A stretch of 64,000 bases of DNA from Escherichia coli (GCF_013315695.1 NZ_CP054356.1), one strand, 5' to 3'; numbered from the stretch's first letter, positions 7,486 through 27,460 are shown. Made by a program: numbers and translations. The notes: generated by a model from the letters alone, not told the origin.

Positions 7486-7839
7486 TTAGTTTATTAACTT
7501 CATCGCATTCTTTTTTGTCTCCTCATCACTTTTTTGCTCCGATTGTGAAGAGGACTGAATGATTGTTGAAGAATTTAAATCGGCCATCTCTTTTGGAAAT
7601 AGCGATCTCAATATATTCACGATATCTGAAAATGTGGTTTCTTTCGTCAGCAGTTCACATAAAAGGAAAGGGGCCCTGGGATCTTGTCTGTATAAGGCCA
7701 GACCTGCCGTCAGTGCAGCCCGGTTAAGGCGGCTGCGTTCCCCTTGCGGGATACTGTCCAGTGTATCACAAACAATTTTATCTGTTTGATTTACATCTGG
7801 ATTTAGCTTAAAGGCAATGGTTCTGCGCTTGTCCATCAT
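7486..7839 (-). CDS. parR: Plasmid partition adaptor ParR (StbB)
   Basis: 117 aa [47 protein letters not shown].. matches recalled R1/R100 ParR. Confidence 0.92.
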   Translation of the reverse strand: MMDKRRTIAFKLNPDVNQTDKIVCDTLDSIPQGERSRLNRAALTAGLALYRQDPRAPFLLCELLTKETTFSDIVNILRSLFPKEMADLNSSTIIQSSSQSEQKSDEETKKNAMKLIN

Positions 7840-8801
7840 TAATTACCTATGAGATACATACCGTTAACTAAATCATATTGAGAGTTATTGGTTTTAAAAA
7901 AACGTTCATCACGAATCTGTGTGTGTTTTTTTACTGCATCGCATATTAATTCTGCGCCACCACCTATAACCATAACATGAGTATAACCAGAAAATTCATT
8001 GAGTGTATTTAATACACGTTGCTCAAGTTTACGAAGTGCTTCATTCATTGCTTCGGTGACTATTGATATTTTATTCTCATCATTAATTCGTTGCTTCAGA
8101 TAGTTATTATCTTTTCTGTGAATAATTATATCGTCAGCAAGATAGCTACTTCCTTTTGTTCTCGCAAGAGAAAGGGCATCTTTTACTGCAGATGTGACCA
8201 GAGATACACCAAGAGATGAGTCTCCGTATATTTTACTGATTCCCGATAATTTCCCCATTACCTGAGAAATATCTAATGTGGTGCCCCCGAGATCTATAAT
8301 TAATAAAGAATCTAACTCATCCAGTTCTTGTAGAACTTCATAACCTGCCGGTATAGATTCAGGCATGACTTTTACATCTTTTATTGTGAATGTATCCCCA
8401 CCATTTAATGTAATTTTTTTCCGGAAGTTTGCTTTCTTACGCTCAATATTTTCCGTATTGGGTTGGTTATTCCTGTCGTAATACTCTGTCAGAGGAAGTG
8501 TGCAAACAATATCCACTTCGCTTACCGGCAGACCACTGGTCAGTAAGGCGTGGTGCACCGCAACGACATTAACGTCGCTGTATTGCCATGCGATATTGGT
8601 TGTGACTACAGCATCCGGGCTGATTGGATCAAATGAATACTGTTCGCCGTTCAGTGTGTAGTTAAAGACCTTTTTATCACCAAAAGAAACTGCCCACTCG
8701 CGTTTGAAGCTGTTCGGGCTAATGTGCTGTTTAATTGTTCCGTCGCTTTCCTGCCACTGTAGTTTGATGTTTGTTGAACCGTCATCAATGAATACCAACA
8801 T
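7839..8801 (-). CDS. parM: Plasmid partition actin-like ATPase ParM (StbA)
   Basis: 320 aa [25 protein letters not shown].. matches recalled R1 ParM. Confidence 0.95.
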
Positions 8802-8809
8802 TTATAAAA

Positions 8810-8975
8810 CTCCTTATGGTGTTTTTTTTGGTGTTTGTTTGGGTGTGTTTTGGGTTTTAAGTGGGTTTATTTGTCAAGTTTACCCCATTTTAACTATCAA
8901 TCAATGATTATTTGTCTTGTTTTGGTGTTTTATTGGGTTTGGAGTGGGTTGTTTTTGGGTTTTGTTTGGCGGATA
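8810..8975. promoter_or_regulatory. parC: parC centromere/promoter region (iterated ~11-bp repeats)
   Basis: Directly upstream of parM: multiple direct repeats of GGGTGTGTTTT / GGGTTTTAAGT / GGTGTTTTATT type flanking an AT-rich core. Confidence 0.7.
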
Positions 8976-8980
8976 ACAAA

Positions 8981-9290
8981 AGATGTCGCCGGGCTCCTCT
9001 TTTTACTGCGCCGGCTGACGCGGCGCGGCAGGAACGCTGCCTGTGGTCAGTGTCCCGCGTCCGGCCGGGCACGGGACGGGCGCTTTTACCGCTCCCGGCT
9101 GGCGTCGGTGACAGTGTACGCCAGCCCGTCGCCCTTTTCTGATGAGCGCCCTTCAAGCCGCTTTCGCGGCATAGCCTTGCCGTCAAAAAGACGACGGCTG
9201 CGGTATTCCACGGTCGGCCTGACCCGTTACCGGGCGCGGTGAACAGCCCACAGGCAGCGGGGAACGGGCGCCACAGGGGCGCCCTCCCGA
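8981..9290 (+). repeat. Leading-region structured repeat, family A copy 1 (Frpo/ssi-like candidate ssDNA promoter)
   Basis: About 310 bp nearly identical to 10288-10598; GC-rich with nested inverted repeats; sits directly upstream of an operon start. Confidence 0.6.
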
Positions 9291-9312
9291 TGCTCCTGTG
9301 AGGATAATTCCC

Positions 9313-10239
9313 ATGCCAAACTGGTGCTCGAATCGTATGTATTTTTCTGGTGAACCGGCACAGATCGCTGAGATTAAACGACTGGCCAGCGGTGCAGTCA
9401 CACCGTTTTATCGCCGCGCCACAAATGAAGGTATTCAGCTGTTTCTGGCCGGAAGTGCCGGACTTCTGCAGACCACTGAAGATGTGCGGTTTGAACCATG
9501 CCCCGGACTGACGGCTGCCGGACGTGGTGTTTTATCGCCGGAGAATATCACGTTCACCCGCTGGCTGAAGCACCTGCAGGACGGTGTACTGCTGGATGAG
9601 CAAAACTGCCTGATGCTGCATGAACTCTGGCTGCAGAGCGGTACTGGACAGCGTCGCTGGGAAGGGTTACCGGATGATGTCAGGGAAACTATCACTGTGC
9701 ATTTCACCGCAAAAAGAGGTGACTGGTGTGACATCTGGGGTAACGAGGATGTATCGGTGTGGTGGAACCGTCTGTGTGACAACGTACTGCCGGAAAAAAC
9801 CATGCCGTTTGACCTGCTGACGGTTTTGCCGACCCGCCTGGATATTGAAGTGAATGGCTTTAACGGCGGTGTTCTGAACGGTGTTCCTTCTGCATATCAC
9901 TGGTATACAGAACGGTATGGCGTGAAGTGGCCTTGTGGGTATGACCTGAATATCAGCAGTCAGGGGGAAAACTTCATTCAGGTAGATTTCGACACGCCGT
10001 GGTGTCAGCCGGAAAGCGACGTTGTTGCAGAATTAAGCCGCCGTTTCGGCTGCACGCTGGAGCACTGGTACGCCGAACAGGGCTGCAATTTCTGTGGCTG
10101 GCAGTTGTATGAGCGCGGAGAGCTTGTTGATGTGCTGTGGGGGGAACTGGAATGGTCTTCCCCGACAGATGACGATGAGCTGCCGGAAGTCACCGGACCT
10201 GCGTGGATAGTCGACAATGTGGCGCATTATGGCGGATGA
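9313..10239 (+). CDS. Hypothetical Trp/Cys-rich leading-region protein (about 308 aa)
   Basis: ORF with SD AGGA upstream of ATG 9313 (track gives alternative GTG 9298); motifs PNWCSNRMYF, WCDIWGNEDVSVWWNRLCDN, GCNFCGWQL; no family recognised with confidence. Confidence 0.6.
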   Translation: MPNWCSNRMYFSGEPAQIAEIKRLASGAVTPFYRRATNEGIQLFLAGSAGLLQTTEDVRFEPCPGLTAAGRGVLSPENITFTRWLKHLQDGVLLDEQNCLMLHELWLQSGTGQRRWEGLPDDVRETITVHFTAKRGDWCDIWGNEDVSVWWNRLCDNVLPEKTMPFDLLTVLPTRLDIEVNGFNGGVLNGVPSAYHWYTERYGVKWPCGYDLNISSQGENFIQVDFDTPWCQPESDVVAELSRRFGCTLEHWYAEQGCNFCGWQLYERGELVDVLWGELEWSSPTDDDELPEVTGPAWIVDNVAHYGG

Positions 10240-10287
10240 AGTATGACGGAGACGGGCGGGCAACCGCCCGTTTCTTTTCCGGTAAAG

Positions 10288-10598
10288 GATGTCGCCGTGC
10301 TCCTCTTTTTACTGCGCCGGCTGACGCGGCGCGGCATAAACGCTGCCTGTGGTCAGTGTCCCGCGTCCGGTGGGCACGGGACGGGCGCTTTTACCGCTCC
10401 CGGCTGGCGTCGGTGACAGTGTACGCCAGCCTGTCGCCCTTTTCTGATGAACGCCCTTCAAGCCGCTTTCGCGGCATAGCCTTGCCGTCAGAAAGACGAC
10501 GGCTGCGGTATTCCACGGTCGGCCTGACCCGTTACCGGACGCGGTGAACAGCCCACAGGCAGCGGGGAACGGGCACCACAGGGGTGCCCTCCCGGTGC
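10288..10598 (+). repeat. Leading-region structured repeat, family A copy 2 (Frpo/ssi-like)
   Basis: Near-identical to 8981-9290; ends just before RBS of methyltransferase gene. Confidence 0.6.
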
Positions 10599-10622
10599 CC
10601 TCTGTAAGAGAAGGAGTTTTGT

Positions 10623-11306
10623 ATGTCCCGTTTTGTCCTCGGTAACTGCATCGATGTTATGGCCCGTATTCCTGATAACGCCATTGATTTCATACTGACT
10701 GACCCGCCGTACCTCGTCGGTTTCCGTGACCGTTCCGGGCGCACCATTGCCGGTGATGTTAATGATGACTGGCTGCAACCTGCCAGCAATGAGATGTACC
10801 GCGTACTCAAAAAAGACGCGCTGATGGTCAGCTTCTACGGCTGGAACCGTGTCGATCGCTTTATGGCCGCCTGGAAACGCGCCGGATTCAGCGTGGCAGG
10901 GCACCTCGTGTTCACCAAAAACTACACATCCAAATCTGCGTATGTCGCGTACCGTCACGAATGCGCTTACATCCTGGCAAAGGGCAGTCCGGCCCGGCCC
11001 CGTAACCCTCTGCCGGATGTGCTGGGCTGGAAATATTCAGGCAATCGTCATCACCCGACGGAAAAGCCCGTTACCAGCCTGCAACCACTGATTGAGAGCT
11101 TCACACATCCGAACGCGATTGTGCTGGACCCGTTTGCAGGCAGCGGCTCAACCTGCGTCGCTGCCCTCCAGTCCGGACGCCGGTATATCGGTATCGAGCT
11201 GCTTGAACAGTATCACCGTGCCGGACAGCAACGACTGGCCGCCGTGCAACGGGCCATGCAGCAGGGGGCCGCGAATGATAACTGGTTTGAACCGGAGGCT
11301 GCGTAA
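10623..11306 (+). CDS. Orphan DNA methyltransferase (N6-adenine/N4-cytosine type, beta-class)
   Basis: Motif IV TDPPY precedes motif I DPFAGSGST; 227 aa; typical leading-region orphan MTase. Confidence 0.85.
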   Translation: MSRFVLGNCIDVMARIPDNAIDFILTDPPYLVGFRDRSGRTIAGDVNDDWLQPASNEMYRVLKKDALMVSFYGWNRVDRFMAAWKRAGFSVAGHLVFTKNYTSKSAYVAYRHECAYILAKGSPARPRNPLPDVLGWKYSGNRHHPTEKPVTSLQPLIESFTHPNAIVLDPFAGSGSTCVAALQSGRRYIGIELLEQYHRAGQQRLAAVQRAMQQGAANDNWFEPEAA

Positions 11307-11528
11307 ATGAACTATGCCGGACACGAAAAACTTCGCGCCGACGTGGCGGAGGTGGCCAACACCATGTGTGACCTTCGGGCCAGGCTGAACGATATGGAGC
11401 ATCGCTGTCGCTTTGATTCCGATGTGCTTGTTGAACGCCTGACACGCCAGACGCTGTATCGCGCCAATCGCCTGTTCATGGAGGCGTATACCGAAATTCT
11501 GGAACTGGATTCCTGCTTCAAAGATTGA
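11307..11528 (+). CDS. Hypothetical small protein (73 aa)
   Basis: ATG overlaps methyltransferase stop (TAAATG); operon context only. Confidence 0.5.
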   Translation: MNYAGHEKLRADVAEVANTMCDLRARLNDMEHRCRFDSDVLVERLTRQTLYRANRLFMEAYTEILELDSCFKD

Positions 11529-11541
11529 GAAGGAGACGAGA

Positions 11542-11976
11542 ATGTACGGAACATGCGAAACGCTATGCCGGGAGCTGGCAGCAAAGTATTCGGGAGACAC
11601 GCCACTGATGCTGGTTATCTGGTCCCCGGAAGAAATTCAGGCCCTCTCTGACGGAATGGATATTGCCCTGACCGATCATGAAATCAGGACTGTCCTGGCG
11701 CGCCTGGAGGACATCCCGGAAGACCAGCGGACTGAATCCGGTATTTCTTCCGGCGTGGCGATGGAGATCATCAATAACGTGAGCGAAAACCGCCAGGTGA
11801 CTGTCCCTGCTGAACTGCTGGCGTCCCTGATTCAGACCGCTGAACAGGCATTGTGGAAACGTGAATGGGCCGCCCGGGATCATGGCCTCGCCGTCCCGGA
11901 ATGCGTCACCCGCCGTCAGGCGGTGGTTAATCAGGTCCGCATCCTGCTGAAAAACAACACACACGAAAACGACTGA
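11542..11976 (+). CDS. Hypothetical leading-region protein, paralog of 13679-14098 (possibly DUF1380-type)
   Basis: Good RBS GAGAAGGAG; shares MY(G/C)T start and R-x-VTVPA-x-LL motif with ORF 13679. Confidence 0.6.
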   Translation: MYGTCETLCRELAAKYSGDTPLMLVIWSPEEIQALSDGMDIALTDHEIRTVLARLEDIPEDQRTESGISSGVAMEIINNVSENRQVTVPAELLASLIQTAEQALWKREWAARDHGLAVPECVTRRQAVVNQVRILLKNNTHEND

Positions 11977-12020
11977 TGTTATCGCCGCCTCCGGGCGGCG
12001 ATACAGGGAGTTCATGAATT

Positions 12021-12791
12021 ATGAATGAAATGCTGAATGCACTGATTTATCGCCACGCCAGCAACCTGTTGCTGGCGCAGGGCTGGCCGGAAGAGACGGA
12101 TGTTGACCAGCGTAACCCGAAGTATCCGGGCTGGATCAGCATTTACGTGCGGCTGGATGCGCCCCGGCTGGCGACGTTACTTATCAAGCGTCACGGCGGC
12201 GTACTGCCGCCGCTCCTGGCCTCTGCCATTCAGAAACTGACCGGAACCGGAGCGGAACTTGTTCTGTCCGGCAGTCAGTGGCAGTCGCTGCCGGTACTTC
12301 CGGCAGACGGAACGCAGGTGTCTTTCCCGTATGCCGGTGAGTGGCTGGCAGAGGACGAAATCAGGGCCGTTCTTGGTGCGGTACGCGATGCAGTATGCAG
12401 TGTCAGTTACCAGGTGGCAGAAGATGCGCGGCGTATCCGTGCGGCGCTGACCACCACCGGTCAGACGTTGCTGACCCGCCAGACGCGCCGCTTTCGCCTG
12501 GTGGTGAAGGAAAGCGATCACCCCTGCTGGCTCGATGAAGACGACGAAAACCTGCCCGTGGTGCTCGATGCCATCCTGAACCGGGGCGCTCGTTTTTCGT
12601 CGGTGGAAATGTATCTGGTCAGTGAGTGTGTGGAGCATATCCTGTCCAGTGGGCTGGCCTGCGATATGCTGCGTATACCGGATGAACCGCCCCGCCGCTG
12701 GTTTGACCGTGGTGTTCTGCGGGAGGTGGTCCGGGAAGCCCGGAACGAAATCCGCAGCATGGCGGATGCCCTGGCAAAAATCCGGAAATGA
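12021..12791 (+). CDS. Hypothetical protein (256 aa)
   Basis: RBS AGGGAG 10 nt upstream; codon usage consistent with neighbours; no family recognised. Confidence 0.55.
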
Positions 12792-12847
12792 TGACGCTGG
12801 CGGGGAAAAATCTCCGCCTTTTCCAGTCGGTCCCCGGAAAGAGCAAA

Positions 12848-13200
12848 AGGATGTCGCCGCAGGCTCCTCTTTACCCGGCCATGTGGGGCATGGCCTTGTG
12901 GGTTTTCAGTTATGTGGCCTCAGCGTCGTGTGCGGGCTGTGCCGTGCCTCCATCGTAGCCGGGCTTCTGCGGGCGGGTTGCAAGGTAAGGTGAACCGCTG
13001 CGGTCACCCGGTCCCTCCTTCCCGTCTGCCGTGATTTTCCGGTCGTTCACCCGCTCAGATTTCGCGGTCTCACCCTTCAACTCCCGTCAGCCGTGCGCGT
13101 CAGGCTGCGGCTTCCCTTGCGCCCTTGCAACCCTGCAGGCCCGGCAAAGATGGAGGCACGGCACCGCCCGGTGTCGCGGAATATGTGAACAACGGAGGAA
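12848..13200 (+). repeat. Divergent family-A-related structured element upstream of klcA
   Basis: Begins with the same AAGGATGTCGCCG..GCTCCTCTTT motif as family A copies, then diverges; GC-rich with inverted repeats. Confidence 0.45.
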
Positions 13201-13206
13201 AACATC

Positions 13207-13632
13207 ATGCAATATGCGAAACCTGTCACTCTGAACGTTGAAGAGTGTGACCGTCTCTCCTTTCTGCCTTACCTGTTTGGCAACGATTTTCTGTATGCCG
13301 AGGCGTATGTGTACGCGCTGGCGCAAAAAATGATGCCGGAATATCAGGGAGGCTTCTGGCATTTCATCCGCCTGCCGGACGGTGGCGGTTACATGATGCC
13401 GGATGGCGACCGTTTTCATCTGGTCAACGGTGAAAACTGGTTTGACCGCACTGTGAGTGCTGATGCCGCAGGTATCATCCTGACTTCCCTTGTGATTAAC
13501 CGCCAGTTGTGGCTGTACCACGACAGCGGGGATGCGGGACTGACACACCTTTACCGGATGCGCGATGCGCAGTTGTGGAGCCACATCGAATTTCACCCCG
13601 AATGCAATGCGATTTACGCGGCACTTGACTGA
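13207..13632 (+). CDS. klcA: Antirestriction protein KlcA/ArdB family
   Basis: 141 aa; size, leading-region position and motifs ([21 protein letters not shown]) consistent with recalled KlcA/ArdB. Confidence 0.65.
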
Positions 13633-13678
13633 TTAACGGACGGGGCGGCGATGCCGCCCCTGTAAAGGAGACGAGAAC

Positions 13679-14098
13679 ATGTACTGTACTGTTAAAGAAA
13701 TTATCCGCGAAGTGCTGGATACAGACGTGCCGGACAGTGAATGCGTTTTTGCCGTGGTGCTGACCCGTGGGGATGTGCGTCACATAGCCCAGGACTGGAG
13801 TCTGACAGACGATGAGCTGGAAACCGTCATGCAGCGGCTGGACGATGCCTTTGAGCATGGTGCTGATGTCAGCATTGTTCACGACGTTGTTCGTGAACTG
13901 ATGGAGGAAAAGCGCGTAAACCGTCTTGTAACAGTCCCTGCGGTGCTGCTGGAAAAAGTGATGGTGATGGCTGGTAGTGAAATTTATCGCCTCCATGCTG
14001 TAGGGAGCGAGAACGGGGGCGACGGTGACGCATTTGTCAGGGAAGAACGTGAGATTATGCGGGTGATGCGTCAGGCGCTGGACGGGGAGAATGGGTAA
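13679..14098 (+). CDS. Hypothetical leading-region protein, paralog of 11542-11976
   Basis: RBS AAAGGAGA; shared motifs with ORF 11542 (VTVPAVLLEKV). Confidence 0.6.
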   Translation: MYCTVKEIIREVLDTDVPDSECVFAVVLTRGDVRHIAQDWSLTDDELETVMQRLDDAFEHGADVSIVHDVVRELMEEKRVNRLVTVPAVLLEKVMVMAGSEIYRLHAVGSENGGDGDAFVREEREIMRVMRQALDGENG

Positions 14099-14490: not shown

Positions 14491-15025
14491 TTATGCCTTT
14501 TCCGGGCGTCCCCCTGGCGGGGCGGGCTGTCGTGAACGGAGCCAGCGGAGCTGTCTCCGCCCTGGCGGGCTTCCATCCCTGACGCAAAACCCCGGGTTTG
14601 CAGCGACCGGAACGGTCGCGCCACCCCTGTCGCGCCGTGGCCTGCGCTCCCGGCATCCCGGCAAAAAGACGCCGGGATGTAAGGAGCAACGCCGTTTCGC
14701 AAACCGCGCTTCACGTCGTTGCAGCGGGTCCCTGCTCATTGCCTGCCGGGTGCCACACACCCGTATGAGTCCCTGTCGCCGGGGGCATAGACAGCCACAA
14801 CCTGCCGCACTGACTGTCCAGGGTAAATGAACAGCCCACAAAATTTTTTACCTAAAACCCGGTAAAAAATTTTGCGTTCTGCCCAGGACAGGTGCGTCAG
14901 GCCGTGGCAGTGATGCCCCTTGCGGCGAAGGTTCTCAAACGGGTGAAGTTCATACCACAGGGAATACAGCAGCAGGTTCCCGCGAAACGTCAAAACCGCG
15001 GCTCCCGAAACTCAACGGGTGATGT
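14491..15025 (+). repeat. Leading-region structured repeat, family B copy 1 (Frpo/ssi-like candidate ssDNA promoter)
   Basis: About 530 bp repeated at 17774-18300 and 23191-23740; contains perfect 14-bp inverted repeat CAAAATTTTTTACC/GGTAAAAAATTTTG (about 14839-14874). Confidence 0.6.
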
Positions 15026-15256
15026 TCTTTAAAAATCAGGATTTATTTCAGGCTCCGGCAATACGCATTTATGTGTTCTGTCAGTCATCCGGCTGGCAGG
15101 TAATGAAAACGCAGGAACAGAAGGAGGAAAACACCGGAAAGCGTCAGATGCAGATATGAAAAAAAGCAGGTCAGGGACCTGCTTAATCCACGCCGTAAGA
15201 ATTGTGCGACCAATTTTGACGGCATTGTTAACCAATTTGTCATAAGGAATCCATTT

Positions 15257-15487
15257 ATGACTGTAAGCATTGTTTCACCTTCCGCAGCGGCTGTAAAGCC
15301 CCGCCGTCATCCCCGTTTCAGACGCGAAGACATCCCCGCGCCGGAACTTGACCCCGTGCTGAAAGCCTTCGGGCGACACATTGCCCGGAGTTTTCGCCGG
15401 GGGCGTGGTGTACACATCCCCGCCATGAAAAACACGGCCTTCGGGCAGGTGCTCCGCACACTCGAACTGAAACGCGCTTTTAACTGA
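15257..15487 (+). CDS. Hypothetical small basic protein (76 aa, Arg-rich)
   Basis: RBS AAGGAA; first gene after family B copy 1; RRHPRFRRED..RSFRRGRG. Confidence 0.5.
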   Translation: MTVSIVSPSAAAVKPRRHPRFRREDIPAPELDPVLKAFGRHIARSFRRGRGVHIPAMKNTAFGQVLRTLELKRAFN

Positions 15488-17773: not shown

Positions 17774-18300
17774 TTATGCCTTTTCCGGGCGTCCCCCTGG
17801 CGGGGCGGGCTGTCGTGAACGGAGCCAGCGGAGCTGTCTCCGCCCTGGCGGGCTTCCATCCCTGACGCAAAAACCCGGGTTTGCAGCGACCGGAACGGTC
17901 GCGCCACCCTTGTCGCGCCGTGGCCTGCGCTCCCGGCATCCCGGCAAAAGACGCCGGGATGTAAGGAGCAACGCTGTTTCGCAAACCGCGCTTCACGTCG
18001 TTGCGGCGGGTCCCTGCCCGTTGTTCTGTCCGGTGCCATTCACCTGTTTAAGCCCCTGTCGCCGGGGGCTGATACAGCCACAACCTGCCGCACTGACTGT
18101 CCAGGGTAAATGAACAGCCCACAAAATTTTTTACCCAAAACCCGGTAAAAAATTTTGCGTTCTGCCCAGGACAGGTGCGTCAGGCCGTGGCAGTGATGCC
18201 CCATGCGGCGAAGGTTCTCAAACAGGTGATGGTGAATACCGGAGGGAACAAAAGGCAGGTCCCCGCAAAACGTCAAAACCGCGGCTCCCGAAACTCAACA
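17774..18300 (+). repeat. Leading-region structured repeat, family B copy 2 (Frpo/ssi-like), upstream of ssb
   Basis: Near-identical to 14491-15025 and 23191-23740. Confidence 0.6.
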
Positions 18301-18340
18301 GATGATGGGGGCTGAAAACATCAACAGAAGGAGACACATC

Positions 18341-22403: not shown

Positions 22404-22559
22404 TGCGGCAACAATCGCACAGATTACCCGTAAACAGCCTGAATGAGCGGGTTATTTTCAGGAAAAGTGAGTGTGGTCAGCGTGCAGGTATATGGGCTAT
22501 GATGTGCCCGGCGCTTGAGGCTTTCTGCCTCATGACGTGAAGGTGGTTTGTTACCGTGT

Positions 22560-22640
22560 TGTGTGGCAGAAAGAAGATAGCCCCGTAGTAAGTTAATTTT
22601 CATTAACCACCACGAGGCATCCCTATGTCTAGTCCACATC
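22560..22640 (-). ncRNA. Putative sok/flmB-type antisense RNA (approximate)
   Basis: Inferred from hok/mok architecture: antisense to mok leader; boundaries not determined. Confidence 0.3.
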
Positions 22641-22837
22641 AGGATAGCCTCTTACCGCGCTTTGCGCAAGGAGAAGAAGGCCATGAAACTACCACGAAGT
22701 TCCCTTGTCTGGTGTGTGTTGATCGTGTGTCTCACACTGTTGATATTCACTTATCTGACACGAAAATCGCTGTGCGAGATTCGTTACAGAGACGGACACA
22801 GGGAGGTGGCGGCTTTCATGGCTTACGAATCCGGTAA
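22625..22837 (+). CDS. mok: mok-like modulator-of-killing reading frame overlapping hok
   Basis: 70-aa ORF overlapping the hok frame, as in hok/sok and flm loci. Confidence 0.6.
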
Positions 22838-23190: not shown

Positions 23191-23740
23191 TTATGCCTTT
23201 TCCGGGCGTCCCCCTGGCGGGGCGGGCTGTCGTGAACGGAGCCAGCGAAGCTGTCTCCGCCCTGGCGGGCTTCCATCCCTGACGCAAAACCCCCGGCTTG
23301 CAGCGACTGTTCCGGTCGCGCCGCCTCTGTCGCGCCGTGGCCTGCGCTCCTGGCATCCCGGCAAAAGGCCGCCGGGATGTAAGGCGCAACGCCGTTTCGC
23401 AAACCGCGCTTCACGTCGTTGCGGCGGGTCCCTGCCCGTTGTTGTGTCCGGTGCCATTCACCTGTTTAAGCCCTGTCGCCGGGGCTGATAGTTGATACAA
23501 CCTGCCGCACTGACTGTCCGGTAAAATGAACAGCCCACAAAATTTTTTACCCAAAACCCGGTAAAAATTTTGCGTTCTGCTCCAGACAGGTGCGTCAGGC
23601 CGTGGCAGGTGATGCCCCTGCGGCGAAGGTTCTCAAACAGGTGATGGTGAATACCGGAGGAACAAAAGGCAGGTCCCCGCAAAACGTCAAAACCGCGGCT
23701 CCCGAAACTCAACAGATGATGGGGGCTGAAAACATCAGAT
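23191..23740 (+). repeat. Leading-region structured repeat, family B copy 3 (Frpo/ssi-like)
   Basis: Near-identical to copies 1 and 2; 3' end shares the ssb leader sequence up to about 10 nt before the RBS. Confidence 0.6.
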
Positions 23741-25789: not shown

Positions 25790-26195
25790 TTCCACCTCTG
25801 GTGACTTTATCCGTAAATAATTTAACCTACTCCACAAAAAGGCTCAACAGGTTGGTGGTTCTCACCACCAAAAGCACCACACCCCACGCAAAAACAATTT
25901 TTTGCTGATTTTTCTTTATAAATAGAGTGTTATGAAAAATTAGTTTCTCTTACTCTCTTTATGATATTTAAAAAAGCGGTGTCGGCGCGGCTACAACAAC
26001 GCGCCGACACCGCTTTGTAGGGGTGGTACTGACTATTTTTATAAAAAACATCATTTTATATTAGGGGCGCTGCTAGCGGCGCGGTGTGTTTTTTTATAGG
26101 ATACCGCTAGGGGCGCTGCTAGCGGTGCGTCCCTGTTTGTATTATGAATTTTAGTGTTCCGAAATTAACTTTATTTTATGTTCAAAAAAGGTAAT
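25790..26195 (-). other. oriT: Origin of transfer oriT (F/R100-type); nic predicted on minus strand near 25878/25879
   Basis: Plus strand carries reverse complement of the F nic region (..CCAAAAGCACC|ACACCCCACGC..), adjacent inverted repeat GGTGGTTCTCACCACC, A/T-rich tracts, hairpin GCGGTGTCGGCGCG..CGCGCCGACACCGC, repeated AGGGGCGCTGCTAGCGG motifs (TraM-site candidates). Confidence 0.8.
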
Positions 26196-26584: not shown

Positions 26585-26692
26585 AAGAAATTTGACTTCG
26601 TTCAAATATCAGAGTTTTTATGATTTAAAAAGGTGACAGTACGAAAGATAATTAGTATATTAATTACGTGGTTAATGCCACGTTAAAATTTG

Positions 26693-26775
26693 AATTTGAA
26701 AATCGCCGATGCAGGGAGTTCTCTCCTCCCCGCATCGACTGTCCATAGAATCCTTTGTGAGGAGGTTCCTATGTA
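26693..26775 (-). ncRNA. finP: FinP antisense RNA (approximate)
   Basis: Antisense to traJ leader/RBS; two stem-loops (e.g. CGATGCAGGGAG..CTCCCCGCATCG) and minus-strand U-tail (plus GAATTTGAAAATC). Confidence 0.6.
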
Positions 26776-27460
26776 TCCGATGGATCGTATTCAACAAAAA
26801 CATGCTCGTCAAATAGATCTGCTGGAAAATCTGACGGCAGTTATTCAGGATTATCCAAATCCAGCCTGTATCAGGGACGAAACTGGAAAATTTATTTTTT
26901 GCAATACGCTGTTTCATGAGTCATTTCTTACACAAGATCAAAGTGCTGAAAAATGGCTTCTGTCGCAGAGAGATTTTTATGAATTGATCTCTGTCACAGA
27001 GATGGAAGCATACAGGAATGAGCATACGCATCTTAATCTTGTAGAGGATGTTTTTATTCAGAACAGATTCTGGACAATATCTGTCCAGTCATTTCTTAAT
27101 GGACACAGAAATATTATTCTGTGGCAATTTTATGATGCTGCTCATGTTCGTCATAAAGACAGTTATAATCAAAAAACGATTGTCAGTGATGATATCAGAA
27201 ATATAATCAGAAGAATGAGTGATGATTCTTCTGTATCATCATATGTAAATGATGTATTTTACTTATATAGCACCGGAATCAGTCATAATGCTATAGCAAG
27301 AATATTAAACATATCCATCTCCACATCAAAGAAACACGCATCTCTGATATGCGACTACTTCTCTGTTTCTAATAAAGATGAGTTAATCATCTTACTCTAC
27401 AATAAAAAGTTTATTCATTATTTATACGAGAAGGCTATGTGTATCATAAATATGCGTTAA
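26771..27460 (+). CDS. traJ: Transfer operon activator TraJ
   Basis: ATG with RBS GAGGAGG; MYPMDRIQQKHARQIDLLENL..; track ORF extends upstream to 26690. Confidence 0.85.
   Translation: MYPMDRIQQKHARQIDLLENLTAVIQDYPNPACIRDETGKFIFCNTLFHESFLTQDQSAEKWLLSQRDFYELISVTEMEAYRNEHTHLNLVEDVFIQNRFWTISVQSFLNGHRNIILWQFYDAAHVRHKDSYNQKTIVSDDIRNIIRRMSDDSSVSSYVNDVFYLYSTGISHNAIARILNISISTSKKHASLICDYFSVSNKDELIILLYNKKFIHYLYEKAMCIINMR

Follow-up and report, generated by a model that had tools for sequence, protein, structure and literature searches.

Probable single-stranded-DNA promoters before a DUF1281 gene, a methylase gene and klcA in the leading region of an Escherichia coli IncF plasmid

Described hairpin promoters and the locus under study

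In the plasmid pESBL six operons are strongly induced after removal of the donor and a large hairpin stands before each of them, the start site of every hairpin promoter having been mapped by 5′ rapid amplification of cDNA ends (PMC12672017; Wen et al., NAR 2025). That study recognizes three classes. Class 1 comprises ssi1-3/Frpo, class 2 the klcA and ardA promoters and class 3 the M.EcoGIX promoter. Classes 2 and 3 are conserved in F, genes of the leading region are induced early in recipients, and the promoters of pESBL and F start in or near the hairpin, show an early, transient induction in recipients and are inactive as double-stranded DNA (dsDNA). Here we consider three elements of approximately 320-360 nucleotides (nt), c1, c2 and c3, which precede a DUF1281 gene, a DNA methylase gene and klcA in a 64 kb stretch of E. 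coli DNA (NZ_CP054356.1; the whole stretch is called the window). We conclude, with a probability of about 0.9, that they are single-stranded-DNA (ssDNA) promoters of the leading region of a conjugative plasmid.

Further work has renamed the classes ssp1-3 and reports that ssp2 controls yfgB (ArdB) (bioRxiv 10.64898/2026.01.09.698686). The F ssp2 stalls complementary-strand synthesis until UvrD unwinds the hairpin, whereas ssp3 is a promoter of equal strength without roadblock activity. Deletion of F ssp2 lowers transfer into restriction-proficient recipients and, for the type II system EcoGIII, placing ssp3 where ssp2 had been restores transfer. A class 2 relative had already been listed as candidate 'Frpo' 4' (Samuel et al., Nature 2024). 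With respect to class 3, an ssi was assumed upstream of ecoGIXM by Fomenkov et al. (NAR 2020; PMC7736820), who found the single-strand-specific methylase M.EcoGIX silent in its original host and gave evidence for a role in shielding the plasmid from restriction as it is transferred. Class 1 is treated in other work (Masai & Arai 1997; Bates 1999; Couturier 2023, PMC9849209).

Judged by its sequence the window is an E. coli IncF plasmid with a conjugative leading region. Positions 8800-13700 are 100% identical to E. coli IncF plasmids, for example NZ_CP024888, and at least 5000 PLSDB records match. The elements were aligned with the F plasmid (NC_002483), pESBL-EA11 (NC_018659) and an IncI plasmid (NC_019104). 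They belong to classes described in 2025, c2 is essentially the characterised sequence and the finding is mostly known; its value for this window lies mainly in correct annotation, as public records call such elements hypothetical proteins or 'arginase'. The first-pass annotation had taken the three for regulatory modules, and their placement immediately upstream of genes, together with membership of published promoter classes, bears that out. The elements are as follows.

8978-9297, minus strand (the proposed folding strand, with transcription toward higher coordinates): c1, an extra class 3 (ssp3 or M.EcoGIX-type) module before the DUF1281 gene, assigned from homology and fold
10284-10602, minus strand: c2, a class 3 module upstream of the M.EcoGIX-type methylase, assigned from homology and fold
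12846-13200, minus strand: c3, a class 2 (ssp2-type) module upstream of klcA/ardB, assigned from homology, fold and covariation

How would such elements work? In the mechanism proposed by the cited papers the minus strand would enter the recipient during conjugation, 5′ end first, from a nick near position 25876 and proceed toward lower coordinates. Before a complementary strand exists each element of some 320-360 nt would fold into a long, imperfect hairpin on this transferred (T) strand. The hairpin would mimic double-stranded promoter DNA, allowing the host sigma-70 RNA polymerase to bind and to transcribe away from the loop into the adjoining gene. In this scheme c2 would drive the methylase operon, c1 the DUF1281 gene and c3 klcA, and conversion to double strand would remove the hairpin and shut off expression. 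With promoters of this kind a plasmid can produce a single-strand-specific methylase, KlcA/ArdB and further factors in the first minutes after entry, ahead of restriction, a capacity that helps to account for the passage of resistance plasmids across strain barriers.

What we observed here bears on class membership by sequence, on the strand assigned, on folding and on gene context; it also includes covariation in class 2 and the lack of consensus sigma-70-like matches. Promoter activity, start sites and dependence on ssDNA would carry over from pESBL and F, a point to which we return.

Class membership, transferred strand and folding

By homology c2 is assigned to the class 3 or ssp3 promoters. 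Inspection of the alignment gives approximately 99% identity to the region of pESBL (NC_018659) upstream of M.EcoGIX and approximately 96% to that of F, and c2 resembles class 3 of these plasmids in site, in the methylase that follows, in the terminator that precedes it and in a predicted multi-branched hairpin on the T strand. A second class 3 copy is indicated for c1, which is approximately 96% identical to the pESBL class 3 element over the full length of about 320 nt. It differs from class 3 of pESBL and F in its site, before DUF1281 and next to parC rather than before a methylase. Both c1 and c2 match the region directly upstream of the methylase in F, pESBL and IncI at approximately 96-99%, terminator and motif included.

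The first-pass annotation had described 8981-9290 and 10288-10598 as near-identical and as ending just before a ribosome-binding site (RBS), and both statements hold. BLAST aligns c1 with c2 at 95.9% over 316 nt. A repeat search resolves the pair into direct repeats at 8978-9064 and 10284-10370 (95%) and at 9067-9293 and 10372-10598 (97%), two gap-free blocks separated by a single 1-nt indel; 13 substitutions make up the remaining difference. The sequence GAGGA (9300-9304) follows c1 with an ATG at 9313, and AAGGAG (10611-10616) follows c2 with an ATG at 10623; the elements end 13-21 nt upstream of the start codons. A BLAST search of the window gave no copies of the elements beyond c1-c3.

Could these repeats encode proteins? 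Two open reading frames (ORFs) annotated in RefSeq, WP_002430945 and WP_001310011, overlap c1 and c2 (calls at 8949-9242 and 10236-10547), and similar calls, 'hypothetical protein' or in some records 'arginase', are made elsewhere on either strand. We consider a coding role extremely unlikely. The 1-nt indel shifts the frame, the two ORFs share a frame only over their last 58 or so codons and their starts lie in unrelated flanks. They have no NCBIfam match, and the calls fall on opposite strands in different records (loci L128, L131 and L133). Chance would be expected to produce long ORFs in DNA rich in GC, and the substitutions occur as compensatory stem pairs, not codon-wise. The ORFs over class 3 elements look like spurious calls in GC-rich non-coding DNA.

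Assignment of the T strand derives from the F-type oriT. The nick-region sequence is embedded in the familiar ...GCGTGGGGTGTGGTGCTTTTGGTGGTGAGAACCACC... context. A short way downstream lies traM, as do the traJ 5′ untranslated region and FinP, which Rfam locates at 26666-26777. We take the minus strand to be the strand transferred, on the strength of what is established for F-type oriT. As the nick sequence is on the minus strand, it is this strand that would be transferred and would serve as template for the plus-strand genes from 9313 to approximately 25000. The annotated order is parR-parM (minus), DUF1281, DNA methylase, DUF1380, a klcA-type antirestriction gene, ssb, a ParB-like gene, psiB, hok/sok, an SLT gene, oriT and traM-traJ-traY. 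The features relevant to the three elements are these.

25870-25882, minus strand: F-type oriT nick-region sequence GTGTGGTGCTTTT, found by sequence match
9313-10239, plus strand: DUF1281 gene, presumably driven by c1 (RefSeq annotation of an identical plasmid)
10623-11306, plus strand: M.EcoGIX-family DNA methylase gene, presumably driven by c2 (NCBIfam NF010253, E = 2e-147; annotation; PMC7736820)
13207-13632, plus strand: klcA/ardB-type antirestriction gene, presumably driven by c3 (annotated 'antirestriction protein' or 'KlcA'; the F homologue yfgB is under ssp2)
10252-10279, plus strand: terminator-like hairpin with T-run closing the DUF1281 unit just before the c2 motif, ACGGGCGG-GCAA-CCGCCCGT-TTCTTTT, read from the sequence and kept in F and IncI
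12789-12812, plus strand: terminator-like hairpin with T-run closing the methylase operon before the c3 motif, read from the sequence

The F counterpart of the last of these is cleaner, GCGGGG-AAAAT-CCCCGC-TTTTTTT. A scan of both strands of 8700-13700 for consensus sigma-70-like promoters returned 0 matches where 2.0 were expected. This result and the terminators before c2 and c3 fit separate transcription units that are silent as duplex DNA. Ordinary double-stranded regulatory DNA, whether conventional promoters and operators or REP-like repeats, would also be intergenic, directly upstream of genes and rich in palindromes. Such an identity is extremely unlikely given the result of the promoter scan and the finding that Rfam has no family over c1-c3. 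In addition, the original hosts of M.EcoGIX are reported not to express it, and leading-region genes are induced early after transfer (PMC7736820, PMC12672017). The hairpins, 200-250 nt in extent and with mismatches that are conserved, do not resemble operators or REP elements.

Folding the minus strand as DNA and comparing it with shuffled sequences gives z = -4.9 for c1 (-98.7 kcal/mol), -6.0 for c2 and -5.0 for c3, strong folds in regions that are GC-rich. The T strand folds more stably than its complement in all eight elements compared, six from the window and two from F, by 1.1-10.4 kcal/mol, a bias that would agree with selection acting on the T strand. The predicted stems and small hairpins are listed below.

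9035-9064: c1 main stem, distal arm, pairing with 9230-9259 (inverted repeat; minimum-energy fold)
9230-9259: c1 main stem, gene-proximal arm (inverted repeat; minimum-energy fold)
9266-9284: c1 equivalent of hairpin B, GGGCGCC..GGCGCCC
10341-10371: c2 main stem, distal arm, with an internal mismatch cluster, pairing with 10534-10564 (inverted repeat, 84% complementary; minimum-energy fold)
10534-10564: c2 main stem, gene-proximal arm (inverted repeat; minimum-energy fold)
10571-10589: c2 copy of the class 3 small hairpin B, GGGCACC ACAG GGGTGCCC, with a compensatory exchange
12933-12985: c3 main stem, distal arm, non-template on the minus strand (inverted repeat, 91% complementary; BLAST self-match; invariant GCCCGGCTA core)
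13123-13170: c3 main stem, gene-proximal (template) arm (inverted repeat, BLAST and fold)

In common with class 1, that is Frpo/ssiD of F and ssi1-3 of ColIb-P9, the three elements have the proposed mechanism, a site in the leading region, orientation and a similar size. Class 1 differs in forming a single unbranched hairpin of approximately 300 nt, whose apex is rich in A/T and whose fold is much stronger than those of c1-c3 (z = -11.4 for the copy before ssb). The window holds three class 1 Frpo/ssi copies, each of which opens with GTCGCGCCGTGGCCTGCGCTCC followed by a small hairpin CATCCCGGC..GCCGGGATG.

14629-15130: class 1 Frpo/ssi copy
17912-18320: class 1 Frpo/ssi copy, before ssb
23329-23730: class 1 Frpo/ssi copy

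Smith-Waterman comparison with a Frpo copy of the window revealed no homology for c2 (z = 2.66, 5 of 300 shuffles scoring as high, with a 13-nt word at chance level) or for c3 (z = 0.14). The 13-nt word, TGAACAGCCCACA, which classes 3 and 1 have in common, was set aside as chance; its BLAST E value is approximately 0.7 and it lies in opposite hairpin arms. The elements c1-c3 would be Frpo-like in the way they work and are not, on this comparison, members of class 1.

Class 3 itself varies little. Diverged upstream regions were sought with tblastn and none was found among at least 5000 plasmid methylase matches, most of them at least 90% identical.

The element before klcA

The closest relatives of c3 place it in class 2 (ssp2). 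On inspection of the alignment it is approximately 89-90% identical, over about 360 nt, to F ssp2 and to the regions upstream of klcA and ardA in pESBL. At least 5000 PLSDB records match at approximately 89-100% identity, the particular variant being common (identity of at least 99% in 614 of 5000 among the matches listed), and in IncI plasmids elements of the c3 type have their own paralogue upstream of ardA. With class 2, represented by pESBL klcA and ardA, F ssp2 and 'Frpo' 4', c3 shares the gene that follows (klcA/ardB/yfgB), the distal motif, a small hairpin and a long hairpin with the invariant GCCCGGCTA (-10)...GGCACGGC core.

The first-pass annotation had noted that the element before klcA opens with the same motif as the other two and then diverges, and raised the possibility of an older copy of that module, now decayed. 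The observation stands, with three motif matches in 64 kb and divergence after approximately 28 nt, and the suggestion fails. Smith-Waterman comparison of c2 with c3, judged against 300 dinucleotide shuffles, gives z = 7.8 with the motif included. Without the motif there is no similarity (z = -0.38, with 202 of 300 shuffles scoring as high), and the alignment that had been proposed for this copy finds nothing significant beyond it; the resemblance of c3 to c1 and c2 is limited to the 5′ motif of about 28 nt. Descent from a c1/c2-like element retained only at its 5′ end would account for the identical edge and orientation of the motif in c1-c3, and for the architecture that all three have in common, namely border motif, small GC hairpin, long hairpin and RBS. 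It is nevertheless very unlikely, since there is no residual similarity outside the motif, c3 is conserved across incompatibility groups in at least 5000 plasmids, it has the ardA paralogue and its stems carry compensatory changes. We conclude that c3 is a maintained element of a distinct class, not a decayed copy. A remote common origin of classes 2 and 3 is possible, a matter that the motif alone does not decide.

Covariation supports the class 2 hairpin. In an alignment of seven sequences, including three diverged relatives from insect metagenomes, 93% of cells are paired. The alignment contains 20 compensatory pairs. Shuffling the columns gives 6.5 +/- 2.1, a count of 20 being attained in 0 of 500 shuffles, and sliding the partners by 1-3 columns as a control leaves 1-6.

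In a hairpin promoter the gene-proximal arm is the template and the distal arm, read from loop to base, is the non-template strand. On this arm a box scan identifies candidate promoter elements in c3.

12978-12983, non-template arm: candidate -35 box, TTGCAA
12952-12957, non-template arm: candidate -10 box, TACGAT

Across class 2 the -35 box is TTGCAT or TTGCAA and the -10 box TAAGAT or TACGAT, the latter with an invariant GCCCGGC before it, GGAGGCACGGC after it and two or three mismatches opposite. All seven class 2 sequences conserve the TTG, the GCCCGGCTA sequence and a T six positions past the TA, together with T.T and C.T mismatches opposite the -10 box. Mispairing at the -10 matters in Frpo and the class 2 mismatches match that description. 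From the position of the -10 box, transcription of c3 is predicted to start at approximately 13157-13160, some 48 nt before the klcA ATG.

There are two differences between c3 and class 2 of F and pESBL. The first involves a 5-nt bulge in the spacer, which is on the template arm in F and pESBL (15/20 nt) and on the non-template arm in c3 (20/15 nt), as judged by comparing 12933-13170 of the window with locus L002:8343-8760. On the non-template arm the -35/-10 spacer is then 20 nt in c3 as opposed to 15 nt in F. The second is at the -35 stem, TTGCAA/TTGCAA in c3 and TTGCAT/ATGCA in F and pESBL, where the changes are compensatory (GGGTTGCAAGG/CCTTGCAACCC).

Several points weigh against reading all three elements as ssDNA promoters. 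The case for promoter activity, for the start sites and for dependence on ssDNA is carried over from pESBL and F, and we caution that for c1 the activity is an extrapolation. In class 3 there is no pair of boxes scoring at least 8/12 at a spacing of 14-21 nt and none is convincing by eye; the best -10-like hexamers are TACACT, in a loop, and GACACT, in the mismatch cluster of the main stem. Covariation in class 3 is nearly uninformative. The 12 elements aligned, from IncF, IncI and Klebsiella, have a mean column identity of 96% and display two compensatory exchanges, one in hairpin B (A-T to G-C; AU:7, GC:4) and the other between columns 121 and 149. One substitution in c1 creates a destabilising A.C mismatch in the main stem on the T strand. 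The strand preference of c2 is small, -1.1 kcal/mol. Counts of G.T versus A.C pairs were considered as a test of the folding strand and rejected as biased, the structure having been predicted on the minus strand; the energy comparison was retained. For c3 the 20-nt spacer, against 15 nt in F, means that promoter strength may differ from that of F. The relevant test is promoter activity on ssDNA versus dsDNA, as the first-pass annotation proposed.

Is transcription the principal function? The elements might serve mainly in DNA replication, as priming (ssi) sites or roadblocks, with transcription secondary. Frpo was first identified as a priming signal (ssi), and its RNA is able to serve as a primer for DNA synthesis. 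The c3 homologue ssp2 stalls conversion and needs UvrD, an activity that c3 may share by its near-identity to F ssp2, and all three elements form very stable hairpins. We regard a mainly replicative function as unlikely because roles of this kind come on top of promoter function instead of supplanting it. The ssp3 class, to which c1 and c2 belong, lacks roadblock activity, and the rescue of an ssp2 deletion by ssp3 against EcoGIII points to loss of downstream gene expression as the defect. Furthermore each element ends at an RBS, and the duplication of a module running from motif to RBS before another gene fits a promoter cassette.

Border motif and exchange of cassettes

The motif with which the three elements open, GATGTCGCCG-N(1-6)-CTCCTCTTT, has exactly three matches in the 64 kb (8982, 10288 and 12850), each of them on the plus strand, with 0.00 matches expected. 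The full forms are these.

8980-9006, plus strand: c1 distal border motif AAGATGTCGCCGGGCTCCTCTTTTTAC (motif scan)
10286-10312, plus strand: c2 distal border motif AGGATGTCGCCGTGCTCCTCTTTTTAC (motif scan; class 3 alignment)
12848-12875, plus strand: c3 distal border motif AGGATGTCGCCGCAGGCTCCTCTTTACC (motif scan), kept in class 2 relatives from F, pESBL and insect metagenomes

Across the 12 class 3 elements the motif is invariant except for one spacer base and one tail base (A or C in GTAAA[A/C]AGAGG). The form GTCGCCG-N(1-6)-CTCC is confined to c1, c2 and c3 in the window; F has it at the methylase and klcA elements, and one IncI plasmid at the DUF1281, methylase, klcA and ardA elements. Class 1 carries a related form, GTCGCGCCG-N8-GCGCTCC, at the same edge and next to the small hairpin, in 3 of 3 window copies and 3 of 3 pESBL ssi, with none expected. 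Taken together, GTCGC(G)CCG-N(1-8)-GCTCC marks the promoter-distal edge, which on the T strand is the 3′ end, of six out of six ssDNA promoters in the window and six out of six in pESBL. Duplicated cassettes also start at it, those of klcA/ardA in IncI plasmids as well as the c1/c2 pair. A metagenome scan with the extended motif gave 125 informative hits among the matches listed, all 125 being class 2 or class 3 elements or deletion and chimera derivatives of them, and no additional class carrying the exact extended motif was present among those matches.

One interpretation, which we put forward as a tentative and somewhat doubtful one, is that the border motif is a functional part of ssDNA promoter cassettes irrespective of class, not a relic, and that it also defines the unit that is shuffled. 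The motif might insulate against, or halt, incoming complementary-strand synthesis or read-through transcription, or it might position RNA polymerase or SSB. The classical 328-nt ssiD fragment, in the form given by Samuel et al. (2024), stops short of the motif, on which ground class 1 activity in vitro may not need it. Two modest additions to the published picture are the motif at the border of all classes and the behaviour of the element as a modular cassette, a class 3 copy having been recruited to DUF1281. The cross-class motif, which is not discussed in the ssDNA-promoter literature examined, and the swapping of whole modules between genes may be new.

Three related candidates were discarded. 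A genome scan with AGGAWGTCGCYG-N(1-8)-GCTCC proved too loose, with 120 chance hits in GC-rich Actinobacteria and other genomes. A direct repeat TGTCGC flanking class 2 is not conserved in diverged relatives. The motif tail CTCCTC was considered as an anti-Shine-Dalgarno or closing helix; the pairing is absent in c1 and c3 and the changes in IncI are not compensatory. The minimum-energy fold of c2 (10274-10630, minus strand) does contain a helix between the motif tail GTAAAAAGAGGAG and CTCCTTCTCTTAC, the complement of the methylase RBS region, and this helix closes the element.

The position of c1 illustrates the exchange. The junction of c1 with DUF1281 is covered to at least 80% in 340 of 4566 matching PLSDB records, approximately 7%, and in the junction matches sampled the similarity usually begins at the DUF1281 RBS. 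Most IncF and IncI plasmids, pESBL included, have a different element upstream of DUF1281, one that is absent from the window (seen at loci L126:1215-1520, L003:10180-10480 and L005:3077-3470). This usual element carries two inverted DnaA-box-like sequences (TTATCCACA / TGTGGACAA), a variant of the motif and a class-2-like core, CTTGCAT-N15-TAACGT..GGCACGGC, with a Smith-Waterman z of 8.9 against F ssp2. Its T strand folds with z = -4.3 and it is outside the six ssDNA promoters listed for pESBL. The element is a candidate for another ssDNA promoter or for a priming hairpin that depends on DnaA. Alignment indicates that, in the lineage of the window, a full class 3 cassette, from motif to RBS, has replaced this class-2-like element next to parC.

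A K. pneumoniae IncF plasmid, p3_L382 (NZ_CP033962; locus L134), carries parM and the methylase with just one class 3 element, and it lacks DUF1281. The element combines the left flank of c1 with the right flank of c2. This is the arrangement expected if c1 and c2 had recombined and deleted DUF1281, or alternatively it represents the state before duplication.

To the left of c1, upstream of parM (7839-8801, minus strand), T/G-rich direct repeats with a spacing of 11-12 nt occupy 8811-8973. They resemble the centromere iterons (parC) of an R1-type par locus, and since they adjoin c1 the leading region would abut the partition locus.

Rearranged cassettes were also seen in metagenome loci (L253, L173, L249 and L182). 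The rearrangements include the left half of a class 3 element joined to class 1 at a common GCTCCCGGC, a class 2 element broken after the -35 stem and the motif fused straight into an apparent ssb or klcA coding sequence.

Elsewhere in the window Rfam matches an AS-pc01 antisense RNA at 15161-15262 (minus strand), just at the gathering score, and the sok antitoxin RNA at 22509-22685 (plus strand).

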